A stretch of 64,000 bases of DNA from Clostridia bacterium (GTDB taxonomy: Bacteria > Bacillota > Clostridia > Oscillospirales > CAG-272). This document shows positions 1 through 37,683 of the stretch, in pieces. The notes under the pieces were generated by a model. That model saw only the letters and a list, made by a program, of their open reading frames with translations, made no database searches and was not told the origin of the DNA. Numbering within the stretch: position 1 is the stretch's first letter; each line of letters begins with the position of its first letter. The DNA is taken from NCBI GenBank assembly GCA_017503865.1, contig JAFVSI010000023.1, forward strand, positions 7,369-71,368, in the 5' to 3' direction. The translations under genes were made by a program, and so were the position numbers.

Positions 1-61
1 ACTTTGTCTCAAATTTCAAAAAAAATTTTTTTAATTTTTTATATAAGTTTTATATAATCTA

Positions 62-90
62 TTGAAAAAAAGTTCGTATTAGTGTATAAT
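62..90 (+). promoter_or_regulatory. sigma-70-type promoter candidate for the PPTase-PHP-lipoprotein operon
   Basis: TTGAAA (62-67), 17-nt spacer, TATAAT (85-90), in an AT-rich stretch upstream of the first CDS. Confidence 0.5.
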
Positions 91-137
91 TGTTATGAAT
101 TTGGCTTTGTTTGGGGCACAAAAAAGGGGGGGGAGTT

Positions 138-782
138 ATGGCAGTAAGTATATGCGTTCTTGACCTTTTGAGTGTTTCGACTGAAAAAAACTGTATCGAA
201 TCCTTCGGTGAGGCGGAAGAAAAAAGGCTTGAAGCTATCAAAAATCCTACTCGAAGACAGGAGAGCGTGGCGGGGCTCACGGCACTCAAAAAGGCTCTCG
301 GCAACAGAGCTTTTTGCAGTATAGTAAGAGACCAAAACGGAAGACCTCGCTTCGAAAAGGATATGGGGATCGATTTCAACATATCGCACAGCGGCTCTCT
401 CGCAGTTGCGGCTGTGTGCGACGGTGATGACACTTGCATAGGAGTCGATATAGAGCTTGTAAAAACGGAAAAGCTCCAACCTCTTTTGCGTGTAGCTGAA
501 AGATATTTTGAGGATACAGAAAAAGAAAAGTTTTATAAGACGCACGACGTTCTTAATTTTTACAAGGCGTGGACGGCAAAGGAGGCTAAGGCGAAGCTTT
601 TGGGTGTCGGTCTTGCGAAAAGCCTCGGAGAAAAAAAAGAGCCCCCAAGGGCATTCTTCACCTCGCATTATTTGGTTTTGCATTCGGGAGAGAGATACGT
701 TTTGTGCCTTTGCAGTGCTGTCGATGGGCGTGAGGATATAGACTTTATAACCGAGCACGACACGTCAGTCAGTCCCCTTTGA
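138..782 (+). CDS. Sfp-type 4'-phosphopantetheinyl transferase
   Basis: ORF 111..782, with preferred start ATG 138 behind a G-rich SD. Motifs GIDFNISHSG, IGVDIELV and FYKAWTAKEAKAKLLG are typical of the PPTase superfamily. Length is ~215 aa. Confidence 0.8.
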   Translation: MAVSICVLDLLSVSTEKNCIESFGEAEEKRLEAIKNPTRRQESVAGLTALKKALGNRAFCSIVRDQNGRPRFEKDMGIDFNISHSGSLAVAAVCDGDDTCIGVDIELVKTEKLQPLLRVAERYFEDTEKEKFYKTHDVLNFYKAWTAKEAKAKLLGVGLAKSLGEKKEPPRAFFTSHYLVLHSGERYVLCLCSAVDGREDIDFITEHDTSVSPL

Positions 783-803
783 CGGATATACGGAATTGAA
801 AAA

Positions 804-1499
804 ATGGAAATAAGAGACGTAGCAAATAAATATAAATACAAAACCGAGCTTCACCTGCATACCTTTCCCGTAAGTGCCTGCTCGGAAATAAGACCTGACG
901 AGGCGGTCGAGATATACGCCGAGGCGGGTGTCGATTCGATAGTCGTGACCAATCACTTGGGTAGCTGGGTGCGTACATCTTACTCGGCAGAGGAATATCT
1001 TAGCGACTATTACGAGGCAAGGGAAGCGGGGGAGAGGTACGGAGTAAACGTAATACTCGGTGCTGAGCTTCGCTTTGACGGCTCAAATAACGATTATCTC
1101 ATTTACGGAATAGACGAGAACGACGTAGATACGCTTGGGTACTATACCGCTTCGGATATAGCGACCTTCTACAAGGAATTTAAGAACGATAGAAACGTCA
1201 TAATCCAAGCTCACCCCTTCAGAGCCGGAATGGAGCGAGTGCCGTCCGAATTTCTTGACGGAATAGAGGTGTTTAACCTTCACCCCAACCACAATAGTCG
1301 CGTTGGAGTTGCGGCTCGGTATGCGAGAAAAGAAAATCTTATTGTTACCTGCGGAACAGATTTCCACCACCCTCATCACGAGGCGTTGGCACTCACGAGA
1401 AGCAAAGCACCACTAAAGAATTCCTTCGAGGTCGCAGAGCTTATTAAGTCGCAAGACCTTTTGTTCGACTTTTCGGGAAACATAGTTATCCCTTATTGA
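804..1499 (+). CDS. PHP-domain (polymerase/histidinol phosphatase fold) metal-dependent phosphoesterase
   Basis: N-terminal ELHLHTFPVSACS (HxH metal motif), VVTNH, QAHPF, and the His cluster GTDFHHPHHE. Confidence 0.7.
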   Translation: MEIRDVANKYKYKTELHLHTFPVSACSEIRPDEAVEIYAEAGVDSIVVTNHLGSWVRTSYSAEEYLSDYYEAREAGERYGVNVILGAELRFDGSNNDYLIYGIDENDVDTLGYYTASDIATFYKEFKNDRNVIIQAHPFRAGMERVPSEFLDGIEVFNLHPNHNSRVGVAARYARKENLIVTCGTDFHHPHHEALALTRSKAPLKNSFEVAELIKSQDLLFDFSGNIVIPY

Positions 1500-1528
1500 T
1501 AAAATCCCTATATGAAAGGAAAAATGTT

Positions 1529-3010
1529 ATGAAAAGAATTATTTGTTTTTTACTTGCAGTTATGATGCTTATAACTCTCGTCGCTTGTGGCAACACTCCC
1601 GACGATAATGTTGATGAAAGCACAAAAGGCGAAGAGACGACCGCTCCCGTAATTGCCGAGAAGATACCCGCTGAGAAATATGACGGTGTATTCAAGGCAG
1701 GTTACGCAAGTGTTGATATAACTCCCACTAAACTGCCTATTGCGAAAAAGAGCGGCGGCTCTTACAAAAAGGTGCAGGATAAGCTTTATGCTACCTGTGT
1801 TGCCGTTAACGACGGAAAAAATACGGCACTTCTTATAACAGTTGACGTTACGAGCATAGGTAACGATATTTGTGAGAATTTCAAAAAGTACATAACAAAC
1901 GCGACGAAGGTGCCCGCTGAAAACATTATAATTTCGGCAACACACACTCATACCGCTCCGTCCCCCGGACTTCCCAAGGGCGATACGGCGTCTATTCGTT
2001 GGCTCGCAGACCTTAATACCGCTATGGCAAACGTGGCTAAAGAAGCGATTGCCGACCTCAGTGACGCCGAGATACACAACGGTACTACCGAGGTAAAGGG
2101 AATGGCGTTCGTTCGTAGAGGATACTCGGCTGACGGCACTCCCGCTGGTATCTGGAGACAAAAGTCCACGAACGATTTTGTTCGCTACGAGAGTGAGGCG
2201 GATAATTCTATACAGATAATAAGATTTGTCCGTGCCGACAAGAAGGATATTCTTATGGCAAACCTCCAGACACACTTTACCGAGGCAGGAAATTACATTA
2301 CCGATACAATTTCTTCCGACCTTGCGGGAGTAATCAAGGGTGTGGTAGAAATTGAGGACGAAGACGCACTTTTTGCAGTTTACGTAGGTGCATCGGGCAA
2401 CATCAACACCGTTGCTTACGTTGAAGGAACAAAGGTGTTTGGTAACTACTCGAAGATGGGCAAGGCGGTAGCTGAAGCGATAGTGGCTACACCTCTTACT
2501 AAGGTCGAGGCAGGAACGATACAGACTACCGAAAAGCAAGTAAAAACAAACGTTCGTAAGGAAGACGACGAAACGGTTAAGAAGGCACAGCAGGCACAAG
2601 CCGAAATTGAAGCTCTCAATGCTTATGATGGTGATGCAGAGGTTTATGCAATTGCCGCAAAGTACGGCTTTGAGAGTGCAAAGGAAGTTTCCTTCACAGT
2701 CAGCCGTAATACAGGCTATGATGCGACCAGAAAACACACTATCATAGGAATTTCCTTTGGTGACCTTGCATTTGTAGCAGTGCCCTATGAGATGTTCGAT
2801 ACAAACGGAATGGAAGTAAAGAACGGCTCACCCTTCAATATGACCTTCGTAATTACAAACGCAGGCGGAGCAGGTGCATACGTTCCCTCAGCTCTTGCAG
2901 TTCCCAACGGCGGATACGAGGTTTATACCGCAGTTGACGAATTTGGTACAGGTGAAAAAATGGTTTCTGAATACCTCGCTATTCTACGTGAGCACAAAGG
3001 GATAAAGTAA
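1529..3010 (+). CDS. lipoprotein, neutral/alkaline ceramidase-like hydrolase, tandem paralog 1
   Basis: Start ATG 1529 after AAAGGA. Lipobox MKRIICFLLAVMMLITLVAC-G. Motifs SVDITP, LYATCVAVNDG, ISATHTHTAPSPG, KEAIADLSDAE, GMAFVRR, GASGNIN, PYEMFDTNG and GGYEVY. Confidence 0.75.
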   Translation: MKRIICFLLAVMMLITLVACGNTPDDNVDESTKGEETTAPVIAEKIPAEKYDGVFKAGYASVDITPTKLPIAKKSGGSYKKVQDKLYATCVAVNDGKNTALLITVDVTSIGNDICENFKKYITNATKVPAENIIISATHTHTAPSPGLPKGDTASIRWLADLNTAMANVAKEAIADLSDAEIHNGTTEVKGMAFVRRGYSADGTPAGIWRQKSTNDFVRYESEADNSIQIIRFVRADKKDILMANLQTHFTEAGNYITDTISSDLAGVIKGVVEIEDEDALFAVYVGASGNINTVAYVEGTKVFGNYSKMGKAVAEAIVATPLTKVEAGTIQTTEKQVKTNVRKEDDETVKKAQQAQAEIEALNAYDGDAEVYAIAAKYGFESAKEVSFTVSRNTGYDATRKHTIIGISFGDLAFVAVPYEMFDTNGMEVKNGSPFNMTFVITNAGGAGAYVPSALAVPNGGYEVYTAVDEFGTGEKMVSEYLAILREHKGIK

Positions 3011-3057
3011 TCCATATACTCAAGCTTTTTAGATTTCCTGTTGAGGAAGGAGATTTT

Positions 3058-4533
3058 ATGATGAAGAGATTTATTTGTTTAGTACTTGCTCTTATGACCT
3101 TATTGACCCTCGTTGCTTGTGGCAACGTGACGGGAGGAGAGCAGGGCACTACGGACAGCAAAGAAGAGAATACAGTTTTCACGGGTAAGCTCGATGCTGA
3201 GTCCTACGACGGAGTTTTCAAGGCGGGTTACTCACGAAAGGACATAACACCCGTAGTTCCGATAAATCAGAATGACGGAACCGTCTACTCAAAGGTTCTC
3301 GATAAGCTTTACGCTACCTGCGTTGCTGTAAACGACGGAGAGACTACTGCCCTTATGTTTACAATAGATACAAAGGGACTTGGAACGGGCCCTTATGAGT
3401 CTATCATAAGGCGTGTAAGCATGGCGGTATCAATTCCTGAGGAAAATATTATGATAACGGCATCGCACTCGCATACAGCTCCAATGCCGGGTGTTCCTGC
3501 GAGCGACCCTAAGAATATTCGTTGGGTGGCTCAGATGACGACGGCAATGGTAGATGCAGCAAAGGAAGCGATTGCCGATCTTTCCGACGCAGAGATACAT
3601 AACGGTACCACCGAGGTAAAGGGAATGGCGTTCGTTCGTCGTTGGATCTACGAGGACGGAACTCCCGGCGGTATCTGGAGACAGCCTAATAACGGAAAGA
3701 TCACGGCTTACGAGTCCGAGGCAGACAATTCGGTTCAGATTATAAGATTTGTCCGTGAGGATAAAAAGGATATTCTAATATCAAATCTTCAAACTCACTT
3801 TACCGAGGCAGGTAATTATGTCAAGAATTCTATCTCGGCAGACCTTGCAGATATACTCAGGTCGATGGTTGAAATACTTGACGAGGACGCTCTTTTCGCA
3901 GTTTACGTAGGTGCATCGGGTAATATAGCGACCGGTGCTCACGTTGACGGAACTAAGAAATTCGGTAATTATCAAAAAATGGGTAAGGCAGTAGCCGAAG
4001 CAATAATCGAGACTCCTCTTACAAAGGTCGAGGCAGGTAAGCTCCAAGCAGATGTAAAAATCGTAACCACAAACGTGCGTAAGGACGATGCCGAAACAGT
4101 TGAAAAGGCAAAGAAGGCACAGGCAGAAATTTCAGCACTCAACCTTTATGACGGTGATGCAGCAGTTCTTGCGATTGCAGCCAAGTATGGCTTTGAGGGT
4201 GCAAAGGAAATCAATTCGATAATTAGCAGAAATACAAATTACAAGGCAACAAGAGAACACCGTCTTGGTGTTATATCCTTCGGTGATATAGCATTTGCCG
4301 CTGTTCCTTATGAAATGTTCGATACAAACGGAATGGAGCTTAAGAACGGCTCACCGTACAATATGACCTTCGTTCTCACAAACGCAGGTGGAGCGGGTGC
4401 ATACGTGCCCTCAGCCCTTGCGGTTCCAAACGGCGGATACGAGGTTTATACCGCAGTTGACGAGTTTGGCACGGGCGAAAGAATAGTTGGAGAATTCCTC
4501 ACAATTCTCCGTGAACATAAGGGCATTAAATAA
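3058..4533 (+). CDS. lipoprotein, ceramidase-like hydrolase, tandem paralog 2
   Basis: Lipobox MMKRFICLVLALMTLLTLVAC-G. Same motif order as paralog 1 (ITASHSHTAPMPG, GASGNIA). The C-terminal ~60 aa are nearly identical to paralog 1. Confidence 0.75.
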   Translation: MMKRFICLVLALMTLLTLVACGNVTGGEQGTTDSKEENTVFTGKLDAESYDGVFKAGYSRKDITPVVPINQNDGTVYSKVLDKLYATCVAVNDGETTALMFTIDTKGLGTGPYESIIRRVSMAVSIPEENIMITASHSHTAPMPGVPASDPKNIRWVAQMTTAMVDAAKEAIADLSDAEIHNGTTEVKGMAFVRRWIYEDGTPGGIWRQPNNGKITAYESEADNSVQIIRFVREDKKDILISNLQTHFTEAGNYVKNSISADLADILRSMVEILDEDALFAVYVGASGNIATGAHVDGTKKFGNYQKMGKAVAEAIIETPLTKVEAGKLQADVKIVTTNVRKDDAETVEKAKKAQAEISALNLYDGDAAVLAIAAKYGFEGAKEINSIISRNTNYKATREHRLGVISFGDIAFAAVPYEMFDTNGMELKNGSPYNMTFVLTNAGGAGAYVPSALAVPNGGYEVYTAVDEFGTGERIVGEFLTILREHKGIK

Positions 4534-4598
4534 CGAAAAAGTAAATTAAAATATAAATTTTCATTACAAATTTTTATTGAAAAGGAGAAAAATTATAA

Positions 4599-6083
4599 AT
4601 GAAAAGGATTATTTGCTTGCTTCTGGCACTTTTGATGACTGTATCAATTGTGTCCTGCGGCAAGCCAGACAACAACAGTGACGATACGACGAATAGCGGA
4701 GAGAGCGATGCTCCCGCAACCGAAAACGTTAAGGCTGATGCCGAAAAGTATGACGGTATCTTTAAGGTAGGCTTTTCGAGAGTTGACATAACTCCCTCAC
4801 AGCTTCCTCACCCACGTAAGGACGGAACAATGATTTCCGACGTTCTCGATCCCATCTATGCTACTTGTATAGCAGTAAACGACGGAGAAAAAACGGCACT
4901 TCTTTACACCGTTGACCTTCCTAACATCGCAGCAGATACTTATTCGGCATATCTTCTTCGCATTAAGATAATGACAAAGGTGCCTGTTGAGAACATAATG
5001 ATCTCAGCAACGCATAACCACTCGGCGTTTACGCCTCAGGCACCCCGAGGCAACGCACAGGCGGACAAGTGGAACACCGAGCTTACAAATCACCTCGTTA
5101 ATGCGGCAAAAGAGGCAATTGCTGACCTTACCGATTCCGAGGTTTACTACGGTACGACTAAGACAACGGGAATGGCTTGGGTACGCCGTTACGTACACGC
5201 AGACGGAACCTATTCGAATACGGGTACCGTTGAGGGACTCAAGAGTAAGTCTCCCATAGTAGGTCCTGCAAGCGAGGCTGACGATACACTTCAGCTTATC
5301 CGTTTCGTTCGTAAGGATAAGACGGATATAGTAATGACAAACTGGCAGGCACACTTGGCGTCGGCTGTAAACGCGATGCCTAAAAAGCTCACGTCTGACC
5401 TTGCTTTCTACGTAAGAGATGCGGTTGAGGGCAACGAGGACGACGTTTACGTAGCTTATTTCCAGGGTGCATCGGGTAACATTAACCTTAATGCTCCCAC
5501 GCCTGAGCTAAAGCAGTACAGAAATTACCAAGAGGTAGGAAAAGCTCTCGGTAAGCTTATCGCAAATACTATGGCGGTAGAAAACCTTACAAAGCTCGAG
5601 CCCGGAAAGATTCAGTCAAATACTACAACGTATAAGGCACTCGTTTGGAAGGACAGCGAGGAGAGAATTGCACAGGCAAAAGAGGTCCTTGCTCTTAAGG
5701 AAGGCTCAAATGAGCAGAAGGCTCTTATGGTCAAGTACAACTTTAACTCCCTTTACGCTCCCAAGCAGATTGCAAGCCGCAACGGCTCTGTAACACACAG
5801 AGAGCAGTATCTCGGTGCAATAGCATTCGGTGACCTTGCATTCGTGTCCGCTCCTTACGAGATGCACGATACGAACGGTATGCAGATAAAGGACGGCTCA
5901 CCCTACAAGAGCACCTTCGTTCTCACCTGCTCGGGCGGAGCACAGGGTTACGTTCCGTCTTACGAGGCATACACCATTTACGGCGGATACGAGGTAGATA
6001 ATACAGAAATAGCTTGCGGTGAGGCAGAAAAGATGGTTGACGAGTTCCTTCGTATGCTTAAGGAATTCAGAGGAATTAAGTGA
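4599..6083 (+). CDS. lipoprotein, ceramidase-like hydrolase, tandem paralog 3
   Basis: Lipobox MKRIICLLLALLMTVSIVSC-G. Motifs RVDITP, IYATCIAVNDG, ISATHNHSAFTP, KEAIADLTDSE, GMAWVRR, GASGNINL and PYEMHDTNG. Confidence 0.75.
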   Translation: MKRIICLLLALLMTVSIVSCGKPDNNSDDTTNSGESDAPATENVKADAEKYDGIFKVGFSRVDITPSQLPHPRKDGTMISDVLDPIYATCIAVNDGEKTALLYTVDLPNIAADTYSAYLLRIKIMTKVPVENIMISATHNHSAFTPQAPRGNAQADKWNTELTNHLVNAAKEAIADLTDSEVYYGTTKTTGMAWVRRYVHADGTYSNTGTVEGLKSKSPIVGPASEADDTLQLIRFVRKDKTDIVMTNWQAHLASAVNAMPKKLTSDLAFYVRDAVEGNEDDVYVAYFQGASGNINLNAPTPELKQYRNYQEVGKALGKLIANTMAVENLTKLEPGKIQSNTTTYKALVWKDSEERIAQAKEVLALKEGSNEQKALMVKYNFNSLYAPKQIASRNGSVTHREQYLGAIAFGDLAFVSAPYEMHDTNGMQIKDGSPYKSTFVLTCSGGAQGYVPSYEAYTIYGGYEVDNTEIACGEAEKMVDEFLRMLKEFRGIK

Positions 6084-6112
6084 TTTTTTTCGCTAACAGA
6101 AAGGGAAATACT

Positions 6113-7591
6113 ATGAAAAAGATACTTTGCTTATTGCTTGCACTTTTGATGCTTACGTCAATTGTGTCTTGCAACCAAACGCCCAATAATAACGAGGACA
6201 CAACAAGCCCCGAGGCAACAGGCGGCAAGGTCGATGCCGAAAAGTATGACGGTGTATTCAAGGTCGGTTATGCTACGGTCGATATCAGCTATACCGAGGA
6301 TGAGTTGCCTTATACAAGAAATGAAGAGGGCGAAAAGATCACAACTATACAAGATCCCATTTACGCTACCTGCGTAGCTGTAAACGACGGAAAAAATACA
6401 GTACTTATCTACACGCTTGACGTGCAGAATATTCGCTTTGAGGATAGCGAGAGCTTTAAGAGCCGCATTCAGATAGCGACTAAAGTGCCTGCGGCGAATA
6501 TTATATTCTCCACCACACATAACCACTCAGGTCCTCATCCCACCGCTCCCTACGGTACACCCGCAGGTGCTAAGCACGGTACAGCCGTTGCCAATAAGGT
6601 AGTTGAGGCGGCAAAGGCGGCGATTGCCGATCTTACCGATGCTGAGATCTACTACGGAACTGCAAAGACAACGGGAATGGCTTGGGTACGCCGCTGGGTA
6701 CACGAAGACGGTGTTACCTATTCAAATACCAGCACTCCTAAGGGACTTCAGGGTAATACCCCCGTTGCAGGTCCCGCAAGTGAGGCAGACGATACACTCC
6801 AAATGGTCCGCTTTGTCCGCAAGGATAAGGCAGACGTACTTATGGTAAACTGGCAGGCACACTTGGCGTCTGCGGTTAACGCAAAGCCCACAACTCTTAC
6901 ATCCGACCTTATGTACTACATAAGAGACGCAGTTCTCGGTAAGGAAGACGAGGTTCTCATAGCTTATTTTGCAGGAGCATCGGGTAACATCAACCTCACA
7001 GCTCCTACACAAGAACTTCGTCAGTACAGAAACTATCAGGAGATAGGAAAAGCACTCGGTAAGCTTATTTACGACAGTATGGGCGTAGAAAAGCTTACAA
7101 AGATTGAGGCAGGCAAGATAACCATATCCCATAAGACCTACAAGGCAGAGATGTGGAAGGATAGCGAGGAGAGAATTGCACAGGCTAAGGAAACCATAGC
7201 CGAAAAGGATAAGAAAAAGCAGGAAGCTCTCCAAGTCAAATACAACTTCAATACAATGTACGCACCGAGAAAGATAGTAAGCAGAAATAGCAGCAAGGCT
7301 ACAACGATAGATTGCTTCCTTTCGGCACTTTCGTTCGGTGATTTCGCACTCGTTGCGGCTCCTTACGAGATGCACGATACGAACGGTATGCAGATAAAGG
7401 AGGGCTCGCCCTATAAGGCAACCTTCATTCTTACAAACGCAGACGGTGCTCTTGCATATCTCCCCTCAATTGAGGCATATACCACCTATGGCGGATATGA
7501 GGTCGACAATACAGACTTTGCTCCCGGAGAGGGCGAAAAGCTTGTCGAGGTCTACCTTGATATGCTCAAAAAACACAGAGAAAAACAATAA
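6113..7591 (+). CDS. lipoprotein, ceramidase-like hydrolase, tandem paralog 4
   Basis: Internal start ATG 6113 of ORF 6080..7591. Lipobox MKKILCLLLALLMLTSIVSC-N. Closest by eye to paralog 3 (FSTTHNHSGPHP, NWQAHLASAVNA, GASGNINL). Confidence 0.75.
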   Translation: MKKILCLLLALLMLTSIVSCNQTPNNNEDTTSPEATGGKVDAEKYDGVFKVGYATVDISYTEDELPYTRNEEGEKITTIQDPIYATCVAVNDGKNTVLIYTLDVQNIRFEDSESFKSRIQIATKVPAANIIFSTTHNHSGPHPTAPYGTPAGAKHGTAVANKVVEAAKAAIADLTDAEIYYGTAKTTGMAWVRRWVHEDGVTYSNTSTPKGLQGNTPVAGPASEADDTLQMVRFVRKDKADVLMVNWQAHLASAVNAKPTTLTSDLMYYIRDAVLGKEDEVLIAYFAGASGNINLTAPTQELRQYRNYQEIGKALGKLIYDSMGVEKLTKIEAGKITISHKTYKAEMWKDSEERIAQAKETIAEKDKKKQEALQVKYNFNTMYAPRKIVSRNSSKATTIDCFLSALSFGDFALVAAPYEMHDTNGMQIKEGSPYKATFILTNADGALAYLPSIEAYTTYGGYEVDNTDFAPGEGEKLVEVYLDMLKKHREKQ

Positions 7592-7628
7592 GAGCCTAAA
7601 TTAGTCAAGTTTGTCAAGGAGAAAATTT

Positions 7629-9107
7629 ATGATCAAGAAATTACTTTGTATAGTACTTACGCTTATCATGCTTTTGTCGGTCGTTGCATGTAATAATACA
7701 CCGGGTACACCCGACGATAGCTCAAACGAGACGGAAAAAGAGGCTGAAAGCGGAAAAGTAGCGGAAGAGAAATATGACGGTGTATTCAAGGTTGGATATT
7801 CAAGAGTAGATATAACGCCCCAGATGCTCCCCATTTCGAGAAAGAACGGACAGAGCACCATAAAGTCGGTAAGCGATCCCATTTACGCTACCTGTATTGC
7901 TTTTTACGACGGTGAGACTACGGCTCTCGTTTTCACGGTTGACCTCTGTAACGTTTCGGAGGATCACTGTAATGCAATAAGGATTCGTATTAAATCGGCA
8001 ACAAGAGTTCCTGAAAAGAACGTTATAATTCACGCAACCCATAACCACTCCTCGCCCACACTTGGAAATCCCAACAATGAGGCGGCAGTTCAGAAGTGGA
8101 CGAGTGCTACACAGCTTAATATGGTAAAGGCAGCCGAGGAGGCTATTGCAGACCTTACGGATGCAACAATATTGGCTGGAACAGGCAAGACAACGGGAAT
8201 GGCGTTCGTTCGTAGATACCTTCTTGAGGACGGTACTTACAGCGGAGTAAACTCTCCTGCGGCAAGCTCTGCAAAGGCAGTTAAGCACGTAAGCGAGGCT
8301 GACGATACCGTTGGAGTTATTCGCTTTGTTCGTGAGGGCAAGAAGGACGTAGTTGCAGTAAACTGGCAGTGCCACCTTGCAAGTGCAGTTGAGATGATGC
8401 CTGCGGCACTTACGGCTGATAGAAACTTTTACATAAGAGGCGATATAGAAAAAGCGGATGACGATGCACTTGTTGCATACTTTGCAGGAGCTTCGGGAAA
8501 TATCGGTGGCAGCAACACTCCTATCCCCTCGCTCAAGAAATACAGAAGCTATCAGGATTCCTCGCAGGCACTTGCAAAGGTTATACTTGACGTTCTCAAC
8601 TCAGGTAAGATGGAAAGCCTTGAGGCAGGACCGATCAAGATAGACAACAAGACCTATAAGGCAGAGATGTGGAAGGACAGCGAGGAGAGAGTTGCGCAGG
8701 CAAATGAGGTGCTTGCACTTACTAACGGCTCTAAGGAGCAAACGGCTCTTTTGAAGAAGTACGGTTGGCAGTCAACCTACGGACCTAAAGCTGTCGTATC
8801 GAGAAACAAATCAAGCGCTACAACGATAAGCGTGCCTATGGCAGGACTTTCCTTCGGAGATCTTGCGTTTATTGCAGCTCCCTACGAGATGTTCGATAAC
8901 AACGGCGTTCAGATAAAGGAAGGCTCTCCCTTCAAGACCACCTTTATTCTCACAAATGCAGGTGGAGCACTCGCGTACGTTGCTTCAATCGAGGCATATA
9001 CCACCTACGGCGGATATGAGGTTGAAAACACCGAGTTCGCTCCCGGTGAGGGCGAAAAGATGGTTGCTGAGTATATAGATATGCTTAAGAGACTTAAAAC
9101 AAAATAA
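7629..9107 (+). CDS. lipoprotein, ceramidase-like hydrolase, tandem paralog 5
   Basis: Start ATG 7629 after AAGGAG. Lipobox MIKKLLCIVLTLIMLLSVVAC-N. Motifs RVDITP, IYATCIAFYDG, IHATHNHSSPT, GMAFVRR, GASGNIG and PYEMFDNNG. Confidence 0.75.
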   Translation: MIKKLLCIVLTLIMLLSVVACNNTPGTPDDSSNETEKEAESGKVAEEKYDGVFKVGYSRVDITPQMLPISRKNGQSTIKSVSDPIYATCIAFYDGETTALVFTVDLCNVSEDHCNAIRIRIKSATRVPEKNVIIHATHNHSSPTLGNPNNEAAVQKWTSATQLNMVKAAEEAIADLTDATILAGTGKTTGMAFVRRYLLEDGTYSGVNSPAASSAKAVKHVSEADDTVGVIRFVREGKKDVVAVNWQCHLASAVEMMPAALTADRNFYIRGDIEKADDDALVAYFAGASGNIGGSNTPIPSLKKYRSYQDSSQALAKVILDVLNSGKMESLEAGPIKIDNKTYKAEMWKDSEERVAQANEVLALTNGSKEQTALLKKYGWQSTYGPKAVVSRNKSSATTISVPMAGLSFGDLAFIAAPYEMFDNNGVQIKEGSPFKTTFILTNAGGALAYVASIEAYTTYGGYEVENTEFAPGEGEKMVAEYIDMLKRLKTK

Positions 9108-9136
9108 TAATTCTTGTCCCTATGAAAGGAAAAAAT

Positions 9137-10498
9137 ATGAAAAGAATAATTTGCTTAATACTTGCACTTTTTATGCTTGTATCGCTTGTTGCGTGCGGCG
9201 ACACAACTTCCTCCTCAGATGATACAGGCGACTCACAGGCAGAGAATACCCCCGCAGGACCTTACACAGGTGAATTTAAGGTAGGCTTTTCGAGAGTGGT
9301 TATAACTCCCACCGAGGCACAGATGAAGAGTGCGGGCTTTAATAGAGTTGACAGCGACCTTACTGCCACCTGCATTGCTTTCAATGACGGTAAGACAACG
9401 TCTCTTATCTACACCATTGACACGCAGAATATTTCGCAGAAATACAGTGATACCGTAAAGGCGAGAATTAAGGCGGTAACAAAGGTTAAGGAAGAGAATA
9501 TCTTTATCTCGGCAATACACACCCACTCCTCGCTTTATCCCGATTCAAATGCCGCTTGGGCAACCTCGGTATTTCTTCCGAAAATGGCTGATGCCGCAAA
9601 GGAGGCGATTGCCGACCTTAGCGATGCAACTGCATATCTTGGAGAGGGTAAGTCAACGGGAATGGCATTTGTTCGCCGTTACATAAATTCCGATGGAACG
9701 ATGTCCTCTGTAAATCCTACAAACAAGTCTGTTAAATGTGTAAGCGAGGCTGACGATACCGTTCTTGCACTTCGTTTTGTAAGAGAGGGCAAGAAGGACG
9801 TAGTTATTGTAAACTGGCAGGCACACCCCGCACACGCAATTTCGGCAATGCCTACCTCTATCTCGGCTGACTTTGTTCGCTACGTAAGAGAAGGCGTTGA
9901 GGGTACGGACGATGACGCACTCGTAGCATATTTCTCAGGTGCACTCGGCAACATCAACCTCAATCCCCCCAACCGTTCCATGAGAAAGTACAAGGACTTT
10001 ATCGAGGTTGGTAAGGCACTTGCAAAGGTAGTAGTTGACATTTCAAAGACCGACAAGATGGAAAAGCTTGAGGTGGGTAACGTAAAGACTACCGCAGAGA
10101 AGTATGATGCTCCCATGAAGAAGGACGACGCGGCAGTAGTTGCGGCAGCTCAAAAGAATTTTGATGCAGGCAAGGCAACTAAGGAAGAAAAATATATCGT
10201 TGCACGAAACAAGGAAGATACAATAAAGATGTACCTCGGCTGTGTTTCTTTCGGTGATATAGCGTTTATTGCAGTTCCTTACGAGATGTTCGATAACAAC
10301 GGTGTTCAGATAAGAGAGGGCTCTCCCTTCAAGACTACCTTTATTATGACTAATGCTGACGGCGACCACGCATATATGCCTTCACGCGAGGCGTGGGAGG
10401 AGTATGGCGGATACGAGACCGAGGCAACTCTCTTCGGCTCGGGAACCGCAGAGCTTTTAGTTGAGGAGTATATTCGTATTCTCAAGTCACACAAGTAA
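9137..10498 (+). CDS. lipoprotein, ceramidase-like hydrolase, tandem paralog 6 (shortest and most divergent)
   Basis: Start ATG 9137. Its RBS/start context (ccctatgaaaggaaaaaatATGaaaagaata) almost duplicates that of paralog 1. Lipobox MKRIICLILALFMLVSLVAC-G. Motifs ISAIHTHSS, KEAIADLSDAT, GMAFVRR, GALGNINL and PYEMFDNNG. Confidence 0.7.
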   Translation: MKRIICLILALFMLVSLVACGDTTSSSDDTGDSQAENTPAGPYTGEFKVGFSRVVITPTEAQMKSAGFNRVDSDLTATCIAFNDGKTTSLIYTIDTQNISQKYSDTVKARIKAVTKVKEENIFISAIHTHSSLYPDSNAAWATSVFLPKMADAAKEAIADLSDATAYLGEGKSTGMAFVRRYINSDGTMSSVNPTNKSVKCVSEADDTVLALRFVREGKKDVVIVNWQAHPAHAISAMPTSISADFVRYVREGVEGTDDDALVAYFSGALGNINLNPPNRSMRKYKDFIEVGKALAKVVVDISKTDKMEKLEVGNVKTTAEKYDAPMKKDDAAVVAAAQKNFDAGKATKEEKYIVARNKEDTIKMYLGCVSFGDIAFIAVPYEMFDNNGVQIREGSPFKTTFIMTNADGDHAYMPSREAWEEYGGYETEATLFGSGTAELLVEEYIRILKSHK

Positions 10499-10514
10499 GA
10501 TTTTAAATATTGAA

Positions 10515-10548
10515 GAAAACCACCTTTCGAGGTGGTTTTCTTTGTTTT
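10515..10548 (+). terminator. rho-independent terminator closing the lipoprotein operon
   Basis: GAAAACCACC-tttcga-GGTGGTTTTC followed by TTTGTTTT, 17 nt after the paralog-6 stop. Confidence 0.8.
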
Positions 10549-10740
10549 AAACGGTAGAAAAATAAATTTGTCTTTATCCAAAGATAACGCAAAGAAGTCT
10601 TTTGGTAACATTTCGTTTAACGCCCAACCATTCGCTATTACAAAGAACAAATGTGGGAATGTGGGAAAAATCCAAAAAAACACCTCAAAAAAATAGACAT
10701 AATGCACAATTAGAACAAGAAAATTAGTCTTTTTTGTGCA

Positions 10741-10769
10741 TTGACTTGTGGTTTTGTTTGGGGTAAAAT
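10741..10769 (+). promoter_or_regulatory. promoter candidate for metallophosphoesterase paralog 1
   Basis: TTGACT (10741-46), 17 nt, TAAAAT (10764-69). The -35 is overlapped by the inverted repeat AATGCACAA/TTGTGCATT. Confidence 0.5.
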
Positions 10770-10831
10770 AATTATATACATTATCATAGTAAAAATATGA
10801 TTTATGAAACTTTTTGAAAAGGAGAATTTTT

Positions 10832-13360
10832 ATGACACGTTCAAGAAGAATCAGGATAGTGGCAATTGTAGCGACCTTCGCAATTGTTTTGCCGCTTCTT
10901 GTAGCATCCCTTAACGCAGTTACAGCCCCGATGTCATCGGCGGAGTGGTCTGACCTTGACGTATTCTACGAGGAGGAGATAGCTCCCGTAGATACAAACA
11001 TTACCCCCGAGTCATTCGTTATCGGTGAAACGGTTTACGATCCCGACCTTACGAGCACCACAGCATTGCCTGAGGGCTGGCTTGCAGGTCCTCCTAAGTA
11101 CAGCACTTGGTACAAAAACGGTGGTCAATCCAGCGGCGGATGGGCTACTGCTGTTGATGAAAATACTACAACAAGCACAGCACTTAACACAAGCGTAGTT
11201 ATGCCTACCGCAGACGGCGTTAAGGTAACAACTGCAGGAAACGGAGACTTTGCTGTTTTGTTCCCCTCGCTTAAGAATTCAAGCGGCAAGGCAGTAACAA
11301 ACTACGTTTTCACCGCAGTAATAAACTACGTTGGCGAGTCAAAGGGCTCGGCAGGTCTTCTTACCGCTTCTCGTGGTAGTGAGAACACATTTGTTGGCGG
11401 TTCGTATTTTATGCTTTACGGTCCGGGTGACACAAGCAGCCATAGAATATATAAGTTTAACGGTACGAGAACCGATTTGATTTCGTATAGCAGCATTACA
11501 AAGACCGGCACGGGCGGTATAAATTATACTACCGGTCAGGATATGACGCTTACTGTTTATTTCTGTGACGGAATAAACTACTATTACGTAAACGGTAATC
11601 ACATTTTTACAACTCCTGCTCCCGATTATTATAACGGTGCTTCTCTTAACGGAATTGGACTTAATTTCAGTACAACTAAGAACTGTCTTATAAAGGACAT
11701 CGTTGTCAAGGAACTTGCCCCCAAGGTTGCTGTTTCCTCTGACATTAAGCTCGGCGAGCCCACAATAAGATATTGTTCGCCTCTCGGTGTCGTTACAGGA
11801 GACGACTCTGAGGGACTTCGCTTCACGGCAACAGTTGACAAGACTTCCGATACGTATAAGAACAATGTAAGCGGTACTTATGCGGCAACCAACGAGAACG
11901 TTAAGTTCGGTATGCTCCTTATTCCCGAGGACCTTATTCCCGATAACGGTCTTATAACCGTTGATACACCTAACGTGCTTGACACAGTCGTTGAGAAGAT
12001 AGACAGCCAGGACGATAATTCTCTTACTTATGCTGTTTCGCTTCTGAATATTCCCGATGCCCAGAGAGACCGTGTTTACGTGGCTCGTGCATATATGAAG
12101 GTTAAGAACGGAAGCTCTTGGAGCTATACCTACTCGAAAACAAAGGTATCTCGCTCCTATGCAGGTGTTGCAAATATTTGCTACACCGAGGCTTCAACTA
12201 AGGCAGTACGTGACCGCCTTGACGAGATGTTCGAGGGGGCGAACACTTACGAGGGTGGAGAAGCAAAGACACTTACTTTCTCACTCTTTGCCGACCTTCA
12301 CTATTATCCCGGCGGATATATAACCCCTGTTTCACACGTTGACAAGATAATGACTAAGGCAAATCTCAATGACGTTGATTTCGTTATGCAGGCGGGCGAT
12401 TTCTGTAACAATTTCCCCGGCTCTCCCGAAATTGTAAACGCATATCTCGGTAATAGCTACAATCTTCCTGCCTATGGTGTTATGGGTAACCACGACCTTG
12501 AAAATGGCGGTAAGCTTAGATCCGGTACAACCACGACTGACGTTACCTCAAATCTTACAAACAGAAATGACAGTGTAGTTTGGGGAACTGCTGACGGAAA
12601 AATTGGTGACGGTAGCATAGCTTACTACTACTTTGACGTAAACGGCTTCCGTGTTATTTGTACCGATACAAACTACTATTACTACGTAAACGGAGACGTT
12701 AAGGAATACAGACATTATCCTTCTTGGTATGCAGGACCCGGTAGTGATGCTTCATACGCCGAAAAGACCAACTGTCTTGGTGACACACAGAGAGCTTGGC
12801 TTGAGAAGGTTCTTATGGATGCGGCTGAAAATGATATTCCTTGTATCGTTGTAACTCACGCAAGCACAGCGGGCACAAGAGGCTCGTCACAGTGCGGAGA
12901 CTATAAGGAAGTTCAGGAAATATTCCGCAAGGCTAATAACAAGAATCTCGGAACAGTTCTTATGGCTATCAACGGACACCACCATACAAACCACACCGAG
13001 TACGTTGACGGAATCCTTTACTTCGATATGAATACAAGTAACGGTGCGTACGTTCCCGACGGAAGCACAAAGACACCGAACTATGCAGAGGATGCTACCT
13101 TTGAGTACGTTGAGTACGATTCTGACGGAGTTGCAACGAGCACTTCCACAAAGCTTATAACTACACTCGGCTCTCTCGGTCAGAACGAAATGTTCTACTT
13201 TGAGGGACCTCTCAGCGCGATAGTTCACGTTTCCTCGAACGGTAGAATTATTATCGAGGGTGACTCGACCGATTGGTATCTTGACGTTGCTCCCGCAAAT
13301 CCTTCGGACGGAGAAGAGCCCTTTGTAAACAGTGGTGTATTTAACGTAGGACAGCACTGA
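10832..13360 (+). CDS. secreted multidomain calcineurin-like metallophosphoesterase (paralog 1)
   Basis: Start ATG 10832 after AAAGGAG. Signal peptide MTRSRRIRIVAIVATFAIVLPLLVASLNAV. The N-terminal ~300 aa are lectin/ConA-like by composition. Metallophosphoesterase motifs are LFADLHYY, QAGDFCNN, GVMGNHD, VVTHAS and INGHHHTNH. Confidence 0.75.
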   Translation: MTRSRRIRIVAIVATFAIVLPLLVASLNAVTAPMSSAEWSDLDVFYEEEIAPVDTNITPESFVIGETVYDPDLTSTTALPEGWLAGPPKYSTWYKNGGQSSGGWATAVDENTTTSTALNTSVVMPTADGVKVTTAGNGDFAVLFPSLKNSSGKAVTNYVFTAVINYVGESKGSAGLLTASRGSENTFVGGSYFMLYGPGDTSSHRIYKFNGTRTDLISYSSITKTGTGGINYTTGQDMTLTVYFCDGINYYYVNGNHIFTTPAPDYYNGASLNGIGLNFSTTKNCLIKDIVVKELAPKVAVSSDIKLGEPTIRYCSPLGVVTGDDSEGLRFTATVDKTSDTYKNNVSGTYAATNENVKFGMLLIPEDLIPDNGLITVDTPNVLDTVVEKIDSQDDNSLTYAVSLLNIPDAQRDRVYVARAYMKVKNGSSWSYTYSKTKVSRSYAGVANICYTEASTKAVRDRLDEMFEGANTYEGGEAKTLTFSLFADLHYYPGGYITPVSHVDKIMTKANLNDVDFVMQAGDFCNNFPGSPEIVNAYLGNSYNLPAYGVMGNHDLENGGKLRSGTTTTDVTSNLTNRNDSVVWGTADGKIGDGSIAYYYFDVNGFRVICTDTNYYYYVNGDVKEYRHYPSWYAGPGSDASYAEKTNCLGDTQRAWLEKVLMDAAENDIPCIVVTHASTAGTRGSSQCGDYKEVQEIFRKANNKNLGTVLMAINGHHHTNHTEYVDGILYFDMNTSNGAYVPDGSTKTPNYAEDATFEYVEYDSDGVATSTSTKLITTLGSLGQNEMFYFEGPLSAIVHVSSNGRIIIEGDSTDWYLDVAPANPSDGEEPFVNSGVFNVGQH

Positions 13361-13376
13361 GAAAGGATAATTACAG

Positions 13377-13964
13377 ATGAAAAGAATTATATTATGTCTG
13401 TTATTGATCCTTTGTATAACAGTGGCATTTATAGCGTGTTCCGGCGATGATTCCCCCTCGGGTGATACCGATGAAATCACTACCGACACACCCACAACAG
13501 AGGCTGAGATAACAGAAATTGAGACTGATGCTCCCGACAGCACCGAGCCTCCTACTACCGAGGCTGACACGGCAACTCCCGTATCTACCGATGCGCTAAC
13601 TACCGAGGCTGTGACGACCGGAGCAGTAACTACCGAAGCGGCAACTACTGAGGCTGTAACCACAAGTGCCCCCTCAGGCGGAGGCGGTGGTGGCGGAGCA
13701 GTTCCACCGTCCGGCGGCGGTGGCGGAGGAGGAAGCGTGCCTCCGTCTCCCCCTCCTGCTGATACGGATACAACGGCTGCTGATACCACGGTGGCTCCCG
13801 ACACACAAGCACCTGATACCGATGAGCTTGACGGAAGCATTTTTGAAAATGATAATGACGTGAATTATCCCGATTCTTGGAATCCTTCAACTGTCGAGGG
13901 ACTTGACGGAAAGATATTTGAGAATGACAATGATGTAGAATACCCCAATTTCTGGGTCTCGTAA
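13377..13964 (+). CDS. low-complexity lipoprotein (Thr/Glu-rich linker, Gly7 tracts, C-terminal tandem motif)
   Basis: Lipobox MKRIILCLLLILCITVAFIAC-S. TTEA-type repeats. The unit GGGGGGGAVPPS/GGGGGGGSVPPS is encoded by a 2 x 36-nt duplication. The motif LDG(S/K)IFENDNDV(N/E)YP occurs twice. Confidence 0.6.
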   Translation: MKRIILCLLLILCITVAFIACSGDDSPSGDTDEITTDTPTTEAEITEIETDAPDSTEPPTTEADTATPVSTDALTTEAVTTGAVTTEAATTEAVTTSAPSGGGGGGGAVPPSGGGGGGGSVPPSPPPADTDTTAADTTVAPDTQAPDTDELDGSIFENDNDVNYPDSWNPSTVEGLDGKIFENDNDVEYPNFWVS

Positions 13965-14020
13965 GAGTCTTGGCTTAAAAGAATCGGTGAAATGCTCTGC
14001 GATTCCAGAACAAAATAAAT

Positions 14021-14051
14021 TGCCCCGCACTAACGGTGCGGGGCATGTTTT
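14021..14051 (+). terminator. rho-independent terminator
   Basis: TGCCCCGCAC-taacg-GTGCGGGGCA followed by TGTTTTG. Confidence 0.75.
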
Positions 14052-14103
14052 GTAAATGTCAAAATGCACAAACAGAGCTAAATTATTTGGTGTAAAAAAG
14101 ATA

Positions 14104-14132
14104 TTGAAAAAAACGGGGAAATAATGTAAAAT
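14104..14132 (+). promoter_or_regulatory. promoter candidate for metallophosphoesterase paralog 2
   Basis: TTGAAA (14104-09), 17 nt, TAAAAT (14127-32). Confidence 0.5.
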
Positions 14133-14166
14133 ATAAGATGAAAAATGATGCAAAGGAGATATATTT

Positions 14167-16695
14167 ATGTCAAATTTCAAAAGATTTATTTTGACGTTGA
14201 CATCTATTGTTTTGGCACTCGTTATGCTTTTGTCAGTGGGCTGCACAAACGATGCGGGCAACAATGATGATGACGAAAACAACAACGGCAGCGGTGAGCA
14301 GCTTGAGGTTATTCCCGACACCAAGGATCCCTTCTCGGTAAATTCTTGGTCAGACCTTAAGGTTTAGGGGGAAGAGACGGTAGCTCCTACCGACTCTAAC
14401 GTTTCGGTCGATTCCTTCGTTGTGGGTGAGACTATTTACGAGCCCACACTCACAGGTAGCGGCAAGGGTGTTCCCGAGGGCTGGCTCGCAGTTCCCGATG
14501 CACTTGTTGCTTGGCCTAACAAGGGTGCTGCAGACGGCTGGGCAAACTATTCGGGCACAGATACCGATGCTAACGAAGAGATAAACACCGCCAGGTTTGT
14601 TTATACGGATACAGGTCTTAAGGCATCTATCGGCGGCGGAGACTTTTCACTTCTTATGCCTACCCTTAAGGATAGCGCGGGCAACGAGGTAGATAACTAC
14701 GTTTATACAGTAAAGGCTACATTCCCGACGGGAGCTAAAGGACAGTTCGGTCTCATTACGGGCACTCGCGGTAGCGACGTGACCTACAAGGGTGGTACCT
14801 TCCACTGCTACTATGCACCAAACGAGACTAATTCTTGGTACTACTATCATTATAGTGCAGCGGGACGTTCAGGCACAAAGGTTGCCGACACGGCAGCAAA
14901 TGCACTTCCTGCTCCTGTATTTGGAGAAGAGTTTACTATTAGCATCTATCACTGCGACGGAATGAACTACCTGCTCGTAAACGGAGAATACGTACACACG
15001 TACGCCGACGCAGATTATTACAACGGCGCAAAGCTTTCGGGCATTGGTCTTTATTTTTGTAACAGCACGGTAGTCTTTAACGAGATAACCGTTAAAAAGG
15101 TAAGCCCCAAGACTCAGCTCACAGGTGACATCACTCTCTCTGAGCCCGCAATAGTTCTTGATGCAGAGACAAACAAGGCAAACGGTCTTTCCTTTATCGC
15201 AAAGGTAAATAAGAGTGCAGATTTCTATGCGGGCAAGGTATCGGGCAATTATGACGTAGCTAACGAAGACGTTAAATTCGGTATGCTCGTTATCGCAGAG
15301 GACGCACTTCCCGCAAACGGTGTAGTGCTTGCGGATACTGCAAACGTTACCGATATCCCTGCCGACAAGGTAGTGCTTGAGGATTCAAACACACTTGCAT
15401 ACTCCGCACCCTTTACAGGCATTGCCGACGCAGACAGAGAAAAGGTTTACGTTGCACGTCCTTATGCAAAGGTTAAGGAGGGCGACTCCTATACTTATTA
15501 CTACTCAAAGACTGAGATCCTTCGCTCCTACGTCGGTGCTGCAAACATTTATTACACCGACTGTGAAAGTACAGCGGCACGTGCACTTCTTGACGAGGCG
15601 TTTGCAGGCTGTGACTCGTACGTTGGTGCTAATGCAAAGACGATGACCTTTGCATTGTTTGCAGACCTTCACTACTACAAGAACACCTATATCACAAGTG
15701 TAGCAAAGCTTGAAAAGATACTTGCAAGAGCAAATGCGGAAAAGGTTGACTTCGTAATTCAGGCGGGTGACTACTGTAACAACTTCAGAAAATCTCCTGA
15801 GATCATAGACACCTATATCAATAACAAATACGACCTTCCCGTATACGGAGTTATGGGTAACCATGACTGCGAAAACGGAAGCGATATGATGAACTTTGTA
15901 ACCGAGCGTCTTAACAACCGCGAGGTCGTTTGGGGAACAGCTAACGGTAAGCGCGGTGACGGAAGTATAGCTTATTTCCACTTTGATACCGAAGAGGGCT
16001 ACCGTATAGTTTGCTGTGATACAAACTACTACTACAATACAGCTAAAAAGGTTTGGGAACATTATCCTGACTGGTATTCGGGCCCGAGCGTAAAGACCTA
16101 CTCTCAGGCGAACTCGCTTGGCGACACACAGCGTCAGTGGCTCGAGAAGGTGCTTATGGACGCAGCTGATAAGGATATGCCTTGTATCGTTGTAACCCAC
16201 GCTTCTATGTCGGGCAACAGAAATACGGGCTCTGATGCTAACCTTGTTCGTGAGATATTCAATAAGGTAAACGCAAAGAATCTCGGCACGGTGCTTATGG
16301 TCATCAACGGACACCATCACACCAACCACACCGAGTACGTTGATGGAATCCTTTACTTCGATATGAACACAAGTAACGGTGCATACGTTCCCGACGGAAG
16401 TGCAAAGACACCGAACTATCCTGGAAACGCTACCTTTGAGTACGTTGAGTACGATTCAAACGGCAAGCCAACGGGTACGAAGAACAAGAGAATAAACGAT
16501 CTTCAGTCTATCGGTAAGAACGAAATGTATTACTTTGAGGATTCTCTCAGTGCAATAGTTCACGTTTCCTCTAACGGACGTATAATTATCGAGGGAGACC
16601 AGACCGATTGGTATCTCGGCGTTGCTCCCGCCAACCCCGGTGACGGAGAAGAGCCTCTCGTCAACAGCGGAGTTTTCAGTGTAGGAATGCACTAA
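14167..16695 (+). pseudogene. lipoprotein-type metallophosphoesterase paralog 2 interrupted by one in-frame TAG (pseudogene, assembly error or recoded gene)
   Basis: ORFs 14167..14367 (lipobox LLSVGC-T) and 14422..16695 lie in the same frame, separated only by TAG at 14365-67. Translation across it (SWSDLKV*GEETVAPTDSNVSVDSFVVGETIYEP) aligns colinearly with paralog 1 (EWSDLDVFYEEEIAPVDTNITPESFVIGETVYDP). The metallophosphoesterase motifs are all intact downstream. Confidence 0.65.
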
Positions 16696-37672: not shown

Positions 37673-37683
37673 GGAGAGAAAAA

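Follow-up and report, generated by a model that had tools for sequence, protein, structure and literature searches.

A tandem array of six predicted ceramidase-fold lipoproteins, and its relatives in uncultured gut Clostridia

Introduction

Why should a bacterium encode six lipoproteins of one family side by side on a single strand, and on what would such proteins act? The question is raised by a stretch of 64,000 nucleotides (the window) from a Clostridia bacterium (Oscillospirales, CAG-272; assembly GCA_017503865.1, contig JAFVSI010000023.1, positions 7,369 to 71,368 of the forward strand). Its first 10,600 nucleotides hold eight genes on one strand, namely an Sfp-type 4'-phosphopantetheinyl transferase (PPTase) gene, a PHP-domain gene and then six paralogs, c1-c6, which span positions 1529-10498 on the plus strand and encode predicted lipoproteins of 453-494 amino acids that are 39-68% identical. 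An earlier reading of the same DNA, made without database searches (the sequence-only reading), took the six for a diversified battery of surface-anchored hydrolases of the neutral/alkaline ceramidase family. Our own reading, to which we give a probability of about 0.6, is that c1-c6 are surface zinc amidohydrolases, that they are old tandem duplicates with differing specificities, and that lipid amides are their most likely substrates.

Sphingolipids and other N-acyl lipids are abundant in the gut and serve as signals to the host; their sources are the diet, epithelial cells that are shed and the membranes of Bacteroidota. To our knowledge, the breakdown of N-acyl lipids in the gut is partly bacterial, and outside a few pathogens we know of essentially no bacterial enzymes that perform it. 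The locus offers concrete candidates for the bacterial breakdown of amide-linked gut lipids. Within the neutral-ceramidase superfamily it also falls into a large single-domain branch that has no name, is surface-anchored by prediction and has a conserved predicted active site, and of which uncultured gut Oscillospiraceae carry dozens of copies per genome. With their clear orthologs and their differences close to the active site, the six copies would make a ready panel for the study of substrate specificity.

Fold and predicted active site of the array proteins

When searched against Pfam, five of the six copies matched PF04734, with scores of 27.0 (c1), 23.6 (c2), 21.4 (c4), 21.8 (c5) and 24.0 bits (c6) against a gathering threshold of 32.1 bits, while c3 had no match when searched alone. 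The matches cover profile positions ~33-232 out of 509, i.e. about the first 40%. Apart from the lipoprotein signal, the NCBIfam scan of c1-c6 recognized nothing. A homolog search returned 284 proteins, all of them from metagenomes or metagenome-assembled genomes (MAGs) and none of them named. Among 97 relatives, 61 matched PF04734 at E<1e-3 (best 1.7e-10), no other family recurring, and a profile of 97 members had the human neutral ceramidase (4WGK, E 5e-9) as its sole match in the PDB.

An AlphaFold2 model of c1, based on the 97-member alignment, reached a pLDDT of 90.7 and a pTM of 0.87, only linker residues 19-38 being disordered. In a Foldseek comparison of this model with the PDB, significant matches were confined to the neutral ceramidases 2zws, 2zxc and 4wgk (E 4e-24 to 6e-22), with a query-normalized TM score of 0.63 at 13-14% sequence identity; the next matches had E>6e-4 and TM ~0.1.

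The HMMER alignment pairs c1 with human ASAH2 at seven active-site positions, namely H139 with His194, H141 with His196, R196 with Arg257, H249 with His303 (after a one-residue slip, WQAH vs WFAIH), E421 with Glu540, Y451 with Tyr579 and Y463 with Tyr591. In the 2015 structure of Airola et al., the zinc ligands are reportedly His194, His303, Glu540 and Tyr579 (human numbering). His196, Arg257, Tyr579 and Tyr591 are catalytic, and Ser354 supports Arg257 (PMC6952831). The His, Glu and Tyr residues of this site are invariant in the 97 homologs, where R196 is nearly so, and all seven residues are invariant in the 22 copies of the window and three related arrays. Every catalytic residue is thus kept in c3 as well.

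The six proteins end ~30 residues past Y463 (c1 numbering), so that the immunoglobulin-like C-terminal domain of the ceramidases is absent, and no second domain was found in either the Pfam scan or the c1 model. Since the PF04734 scores stay under the gathering threshold and the C-terminal domain is absent, c1-c6 are a divergent single-domain subfamily and not canonical ceramidases. The earlier assignment to the ceramidase family therefore holds for the catalytic domain, which is homologous and has an intact predicted metal and catalytic site, and not for the protein as a whole. The comparison with Pseudomonas ceramidase that had been proposed as its check showed a matching fold (2zws), and the ligand residues are conserved in the alignment with human ASAH2. 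As judged from sequence and model, c1-c6 are very probably active zinc amidohydrolases of the ceramidase fold.

All six proteins begin with MK(R/K)I(I/L)C..., followed by 12-14 hydrophobic residues, a (L/I/V)V(A/S)C lipobox with its Cys at position 20, and a polar, acidic linker. None of the 22 copies lacks the lipobox Cys, which at least 90% of the 97 homologs share, and the NCBIfam and Pfam LPAM_1 models gave weak lipoprotein-signal matches. With basic residues, hydrophobic stretch and lipobox Cys in place, c1-c6 are predicted to be lipoproteins, and the near-identical signals that the sequence-only reading had described are found on every copy. The shared motifs it listed are present and colinear, with exceptions: c4 reads VDISYT, c6 reads VVITP and LTATC, and KEAIADL varies in c4 and c5.

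The last copy, c6, departs from the others at two sites. Both c6 and its ortholog in the close relative L052 (see below) carry Leu in the GASGNI motif, at a position (Ser289 in c1) that is Ser in 20 of the 22 related copies and in at least 90% of the family, and the helical insert of c6 is ~20 residues shorter. Ser289 of c1 is presumably the equivalent of human Ser354, and if so the activity of c6 may be altered or reduced.

Array organization and transcription signals

The copies lie on the plus strand at positions 1529-3010 (c1, 493 amino acids), 3061-4533 (c2, 490 amino acids, with an alternative ATG at 3058), 4599-6083 (c3, 494 amino acids), 6113-7591 (c4, 492 amino acids), 7629-9107 (c5, 492 amino acids) and 9137-10498 (c6, 453 amino acids). 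These coordinates use starts that are preceded by a ribosome-binding site; the lengths of 458-504 amino acids given earlier are those of the longest open reading frames (ORFs). The ORF listing and tblastn confirmed six consecutive genes on the same strand, and tblastn with each copy found exactly six in the 64 kb, i.e. no seventh. Their mutual similarity (pairwise tblastn E-values from 1e-90 to 0) is far beyond chance. By amino-acid identity, c1 and c2 (68%) and c3 and c4 (62%) are the closest pairs, followed by c3 or c4 with c5 (53%) and c5 with c6 (47%), all other pairs being at 39-45%; the grouping (1,2), (3,4,5) and (6), previously made by eye, was right.

The spacers between the copies, measured from the real starts, are 50, 65, 29, 37 and 29 nucleotides long, and none of them folds better than shuffled sequence. 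Those linking PPTase, PHP and c1 measure 21-29 nucleotides, which gives a range of 21-65 nucleotides from the PPTase gene to c6. The best sigma-70-like promoter match (TTGAAA-17-TATAAT) within positions 1-11000 is situated at 62-90 on the plus strand, 5' of the PPTase gene; its designation is based solely on agreement with the consensus (11 of 12 positions). Promoter-like sites were not enriched overall (20 vs 14.6 +/- 4.1 in shuffled sequences), so that the region may also have internal promoters. The array is closed by an intrinsic terminator at 10511-10548 (plus strand), a 15-bp stem followed by a T-run, with a folding energy of -20.3 kcal/mol (z -4.41) that was not equaled by any of 200 shuffles. 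This hairpin was not listed by a simple scan and was found by folding against shuffles. The metallophosphoesterase gene that comes next has a promoter-like site of its own at 10741-10769. Around their starts, c1 and c6 have almost the same sequence, CCCTAT(A)TGAAAGGAAAAA..ATGAAAAGAAT, as had been noticed before. The scan and the folding bore out the promoter match, the hairpin-free spacers and the terminator of the sequence-only reading. With its short, hairpin-free spacers, its best promoter match 5' of the PPTase gene and a single strong terminator, the region is consistent with co-transcription of PPTase, PHP and c1-c6, and the array is probably transcribed together with, or read through from, the PPTase-PHP pair.

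Evolution of the array in close relatives

The gene order PPTase, PHP, array, metallophosphoesterase is kept in four assemblies of close relatives (L052-L055), which differ in their number of copies. There are four copies in L052 (~96-98% nucleotide identity to the window over aligned segments), five in L053 (~78%) and seven, in the same order, in L054 and L055 (~76%), which come from two independent samples. L053 has no ortholog of c2, and L054 and L055 have an additional seventh gene 3' of c6. Among the orthologs, c1 corresponds to L053_1 (83% identity) and L054_1 (76%), and c2 to L054_2 (82%), while those of c3 are 86-97% identical.

A 3.1-kb deletion distinguishes L052, which lacks window positions 1237-4328. 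It occurred at an 11-nucleotide microhomology, CGGAATGGAGC, which sits at 1226-1236 and 4329-4339 of the window, the junction being L052:9731-9741. All of c1, most of c2 and the remainder of the PHP gene are removed and c3-c6 are kept, leaving an in-frame chimera of PHP residues 1-144 and the last 60-odd residues of c2.

In a neighbor-joining (NJ) tree of the window and the arrays of three relatives, each copy clusters with its positional ortholog (74-98% identity) and not with its neighbors. The ratio of nonsynonymous to synonymous substitution rates (dN/dS) between orthologs is 0.07-0.19. At 93 positions the residue is constant inside five or more of the six ortholog groups but takes at least three states between groups; they include neighbors of H139/H141, H249 and Y451, and cluster in the helical insert at ~345-400. 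This pattern would fit a divergence in specificity. By the clustering, the dN/dS values and the group-specific positions, the description of the array as a diversified set is well founded.

The suggestion of gene conversion, on the other hand, was not. The likeness of the C-terminal tails of c1 and c2 that gave rise to it is real, the last 75 residues being 89% identical at the amino-acid level, but the tails are alike throughout the clade, at a comparable 81-93% amino-acid identity across genomes and paralogs, and the third-position identity of c1 and c2 is hardly higher in the tail (0.67) than in the rest of the gene (0.59). With sliding-window nucleotide, amino-acid and same-codon identity, the NJ tree and the comparison of body and tail all considered, gene conversion was rejected and the copies were taken to be old, independent paralogs. 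As the copies group by ortholog and the tail is conserved clade-wide, the duplications are older than these lineages. Each copy is kept by selection, with no need to invoke gene conversion, and the array would evolve by gain and loss of whole genes and not by homogenization.

Distribution of the family

The wider scan considered one genome per species, with distant copies called as tblastn-anchored ORFs. It identified 51 distant loci in MAGs of uncultured Oscillospiraceae, "Eubacteriales", Faecousia, Lawsonibacter and Acutalibacteraceae. The sources given in the record titles include sheep rectum, yak cecum and Hadza samples, and there is one RUG-series MAG. Tandem arrays are present at many of these loci. 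The copies numbered 13 in L004, 12 in L038 and eight in L012, and contig SVQO01000002 has 18 on the same strand (137,316-165,013). Counting the fetched loci alone, one MAG has 26 or more copies and another 33 or more. Copy number had been proposed for comparison across related genomes, and it thus ranges from 4, 5 or 7 in close relatives up to 18 in tandem elsewhere. A lipobox is present in 128 of 151 complete copies from the other loci, the rest being mostly cytoplasmic-looking, a few with other N-terminal sequences. When 1.84 billion cluster representatives were searched exhaustively with a profile, 16,730 clusters matched at E<=1e-3, of which 8,094 reached E<=1e-10 and 1,841 E<=1e-30. Lengths of 440-510 amino acids predominate among the 150 best, and a few members are fused into multidomain proteins of 700-2,800 amino acids; in P0125, P0162, P0192, P0222 and P0240 the long partner regions have no Pfam match.

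The genes around the distant arrays were surveyed by Pfam annotation and clustering of 91 flanking ORFs. No partner gene was universal among these; only small recurrent sets appeared, i.e. AraC regulators, glycerophosphodiester phosphodiesterase (GDPD), GH28 and a leucine-rich repeat (LRR) protein. In three different MAGs, the arrays of 13, 8 and 18 copies contain or end with a gene for GDPD, a cytoplasmic enzyme (L004:14386-15195, L012:13237-14097 and L017:4310-5173); the two of these that were scanned match PF03009 at E ~1e-34. Patatin-like and esterase genes also occur among the flanking genes.

A further feature is the motif GD(L/V)D(Q/E)NG..D.EDA(I/V)(Y/H)LL(Y/F)H..FP(E/D)RY, seen in L013:4175-5470, L019:3900-5192 and L006:11496-12329 and carried by some distant copies as well as by an adjoining BspA-type LRR protein. 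By eye it resembles a dockerin or EF-hand, which hints that some members are held by a scaffold and not by a lipid anchor.

Nothing relevant was found in the literature on this subfamily or on such arrays. This agrees with the earlier remark on the absence of a described system of this dosage and arrangement, while the dosage itself turned out to be modest, arrays of up to 18 copies existing elsewhere. Compared with the expansion of this large, unnamed family as a whole, the window array is small.

Proposed function and alternative explanations

We picture each copy as a single-domain zinc amidohydrolase with the neutral-ceramidase catalytic fold, which would be exported, lipid-modified at Cys20 and tethered to the outer face of the cytoplasmic membrane by a disordered, acidic linker of ~25-30 residues. 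By analogy with PaCD and human ASAH2, zinc would be held by His139, His249, Glu421 and Tyr451 (c1 numbering) and would activate a water molecule, which would attack an N-acyl amide bond with the help of His141, Arg196 and Tyr463. Each of the six copies would take a different extracellular N-acyl substrate, the likeliest ones being lipid amides, ceramide-type or other, that come from the diet, the host or Bacteroidota and would yield a fatty acid and an amine. Lipid amides are favored because of the homology to ceramidases, the GDPD genes in three large arrays and the patatin and esterase genes in the flanks, and we would give them an even chance of being the actual substrates. More tentatively, the family may constitute a missing gut-bacterial toolkit for amide-linked lipids, i.e. 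ceramides, sphingolipids of Bacteroidota, glycosphingolipids and N-acyl amides, as a lipid counterpart of the polysaccharide utilization loci. If that were true, uncultured Oscillospiraceae would display dozens of substrate-specialized enzymes of the ceramidase fold at their surface, from arrays of as many as 18 genes, and these would form a new single-domain branch of the superfamily.

Several observations weigh against zinc amidohydrolases acting on lipids, namely that all six copies score under the PF04734 gathering threshold, that the C-terminal domain is absent, that c6 has lost the near-invariant Ser, and that parts of the wider family resemble carbohydrate loci. The last of these would agree with N-deacylases or N-deacetylases that act on glycans or glycoconjugates, be it of mucin, of the diet or of the glycan side of glycosphingolipids, the arrays then being carbohydrate-utilization sets and the family a new deacylase family. 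Family members are fused to DUF4886 (P0131 and P0182), which we take to be SGNH-like, and to F5/8 type C domains (P0218, P0252 and P0206), presumably CBM32-like; the arrays L018, L022 and L027 end with a GH28-like gene; and AraC regulators are the commonest flanking family (5 of 91), GH36 occurring once. Carbohydrate-active loci more typically show such features. However, neither sugar ABC transporters nor glycoside hydrolases are encoded within or beside the window array, the only solved relatives are ceramidases, and the GDPD, patatin and esterase neighbors indicate lipids. AraC regulators, moreover, are common, and one of them, SphR, controls a ceramidase in Pseudomonas (PMC5150637). Glycan N-acyl groups thus seem unlikely substrates, although they are the foremost alternative to lipid amides.

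A role without catalysis, where binding proteins or variable surface antigens are built on a retained enzyme fold and the array provides surface variation, would suit the strong divergence of the paralogs. Tandem arrays of paralogous lipoproteins are also a known theme, as in the lpl cluster of Staphylococcus aureus. Such a role is nevertheless very improbable, given that the catalytic and metal residues are conserved in the 97 homologs, R196 almost without exception, and invariant in the 22 array copies, and that the orthologs are under strong purifying selection (dN/dS 0.07-0.19); the spacers look ordinary by eye, no search for phase-variation signals having been made. Equally far-fetched is a common pathway of the array with the PPTase and PHP proteins, leading e.g. 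to a carrier-protein-derived acyl or lipopeptide product. It is suggested by the shared strand, the gaps of 21-29 nucleotides, the one good promoter and the one terminator, and by the identical order in all four close relatives. However, tblastn in the 55 loci found PPTase, PHP and the metallophosphoesterase only in those four relatives and in none (0/51) of the distant loci; PHP has 2,125 homologs in Clostridia, and in three more distant genomes it stands in unrelated contexts, in one of these with a PPTase gene two genes off and no ceramidase-like gene nearby. Furthermore, no carrier-protein, polyketide synthase or nonribosomal peptide synthetase domain was found in the larger window ORFs scanned, a scan that did not take in every ORF or the small ones of acyl-carrier-protein size; the PPTase and PHP proteins are cytoplasmic while the array products are predicted to be extracellular; and L052 retains c3-c6 although its deletion took away the PHP C-terminus along with c1 and c2. 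Because of the absence from all 51 distant loci and the other contexts of PHP, the two genes are neighbors and not functional partners, contrary to the link that had been supposed, and we conclude that the array grew beside a housekeeping pair and works independently of both. An assembly artefact, i.e. a collapsed or expanded repeat, can practically be discounted. Nothing specific speaks for it beyond the origin of the related sequences in metagenome assemblies, while the copies differ too much to be confused in assembly (amino-acid identity 39-68%; ~0.5-0.9 nucleotide identity in 30-codon windows) and colinear arrays exist in four independent assemblies. Surface zinc amidohydrolases with lipid amides as their most likely substrates thus remain our preferred reading of c1-c6.

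Neighboring genes

The PPTase gene (138-782, plus strand) has an ORF that opens with TTG at 111, its likely start being the ATG at 138 after a GGGGGGAG ribosome-binding site. By its ACPS domain (PF01648, 43.5 bits against a cut-off of 25) and its similarity to Sfp (1qr0, E 1.7e-5), the product is assigned to the Sfp-type PPTases. The PHP gene (804-1499, plus strand) is predicted to encode a cytoplasmic metal phosphoesterase (PF02811, 32.3 bits against a cut-off of 26.4), and its nearest solved relatives in a profile search were TM0559 and an RNase AM-type exoribonuclease. Antibody matches from a single-sequence PDB search with this protein were spurious and were dismissed. Also set aside as speculation was a role as 3',5'-bisphosphate nucleotidase clearing the PPTase by-product, for which there was an NCBIfam match of 18.5 bits and unspecific PDB profile matches. 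The other larger ORFs scanned in the window are mostly housekeeping genes, e.g. TrpRS, MutS/MutL, TGT, ProRS, FtsH, TilS, DnaB, NusA and IF-2.

Downstream of the terminator, a large metallophosphoesterase of 848 amino acids with a hydrophobic N-terminal segment (PF00149, 47 bits) is encoded at 10814-13360 on the plus strand. L052-L055 all have this gene, and none of the 51 distant loci does. A sphingomyelinase-like identity was considered for the product, and sequence searches of the PDB gave no significant matches. It is the first gene of a block at 10814-16695, where two paralogous metallophosphoesterases (848 and 757 amino acids) surround a lipoprotein of 195 amino acids (13377-13964) with acidic repeats rich in Thr and Glu and, ahead of Pro-rich stretches, two Gly7 runs. 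This block is conserved 3' of the array in close relatives only.

Directly 5' of the PPTase gene, and outside the window, all four close relatives have a phage-like block on the opposite strand (L052:1368-8422, L053:1-6842 and L054:1-5236). It comprises a small protein, a terminase of 439 amino acids, a protein of 581 amino acids, a P22-type portal and a capsid protein, and may represent the conserved remains of a prophage or a cluster resembling a gene transfer agent. Further into the window, at 18227-19513 on the minus strand, a lipoprotein of 428 amino acids without Pfam or NCBIfam match has an ILIIGNSF block like the first SGNH/DUF4886 motif; it was not retained as DUF4886-like, the BLAST similarity being limited to nine residues. 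Lastly, a C5 cytosine methyltransferase and an R.HinP1I-type restriction endonuclease at 36725-38427 occupy the stretch of lowest GC content (35.5% vs ~46%) and are probably a horizontally acquired type II restriction-modification system.

Comparison with known systems

The closest known systems are the neutral ceramidases PaCD/CerN of Pseudomonas aeruginosa (2ZWS, 2ZXC) and human ASAH2 (4WGK), which share the fold of the catalytic domain with c1. Zinc ligands and catalytic His, Arg and Tyr residues follow in the same order, with a Tyr-to-Tyr spacing of 12 in both, and both groups are extracellular, by prediction in the case of the array proteins. The latter differ in their low identity (13-14%, under the Pfam gathering score), in a family-specific helical insert and in the absence of the C-terminal beta-sandwich domain of the ceramidases, which we take to be PF17048. 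They would be anchored through a lipobox, whereas neutral ceramidases are secreted or have a type II membrane anchor, and they occur in tandem arrays of 4-18 copies, whereas neutral ceramidases are encoded by single genes.

A bacterial example of a regulated ceramidase is found in the SphR-dependent sphingosine response of P. aeruginosa (PMC5150637). An extracellular ceramidase-type enzyme is common to that system and the arrays, and AraC genes are neighbors in distant MAGs (5/91). Unlike the SphR system, the window array is not adjoined by an AraC gene, and no sphingomyelinase/PlcH homolog was identified; AraC regulators are in any case too common to count as evidence. The Shewanella SCDase is a bacterial enzyme that strips the N-acyl chain from glycosphingolipids and is not known to be related to this protein family. 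No similarity between it and the array proteins was detected, the PDB searches giving neutral ceramidases only. It is a possible functional analog, and such an activity would fit the F5/8 type C fusions of the relatives.

As regards gene organization, the lpl cluster of S. aureus (DUF576) consists of paralogous lipoprotein genes on the same strand, with near-identical signal peptides and a copy number that varies between strains. The window array is alike in all three respects, i.e. in its same-strand run of lipoprotein genes, its near-identical signals and its variable copy number. For the lpl proteins, we know of no enzyme fold or catalytic site. Unlike them, every copy in the window keeps a complete predicted zinc-hydrolase site, and the copies have stable orthologs in related genomes.

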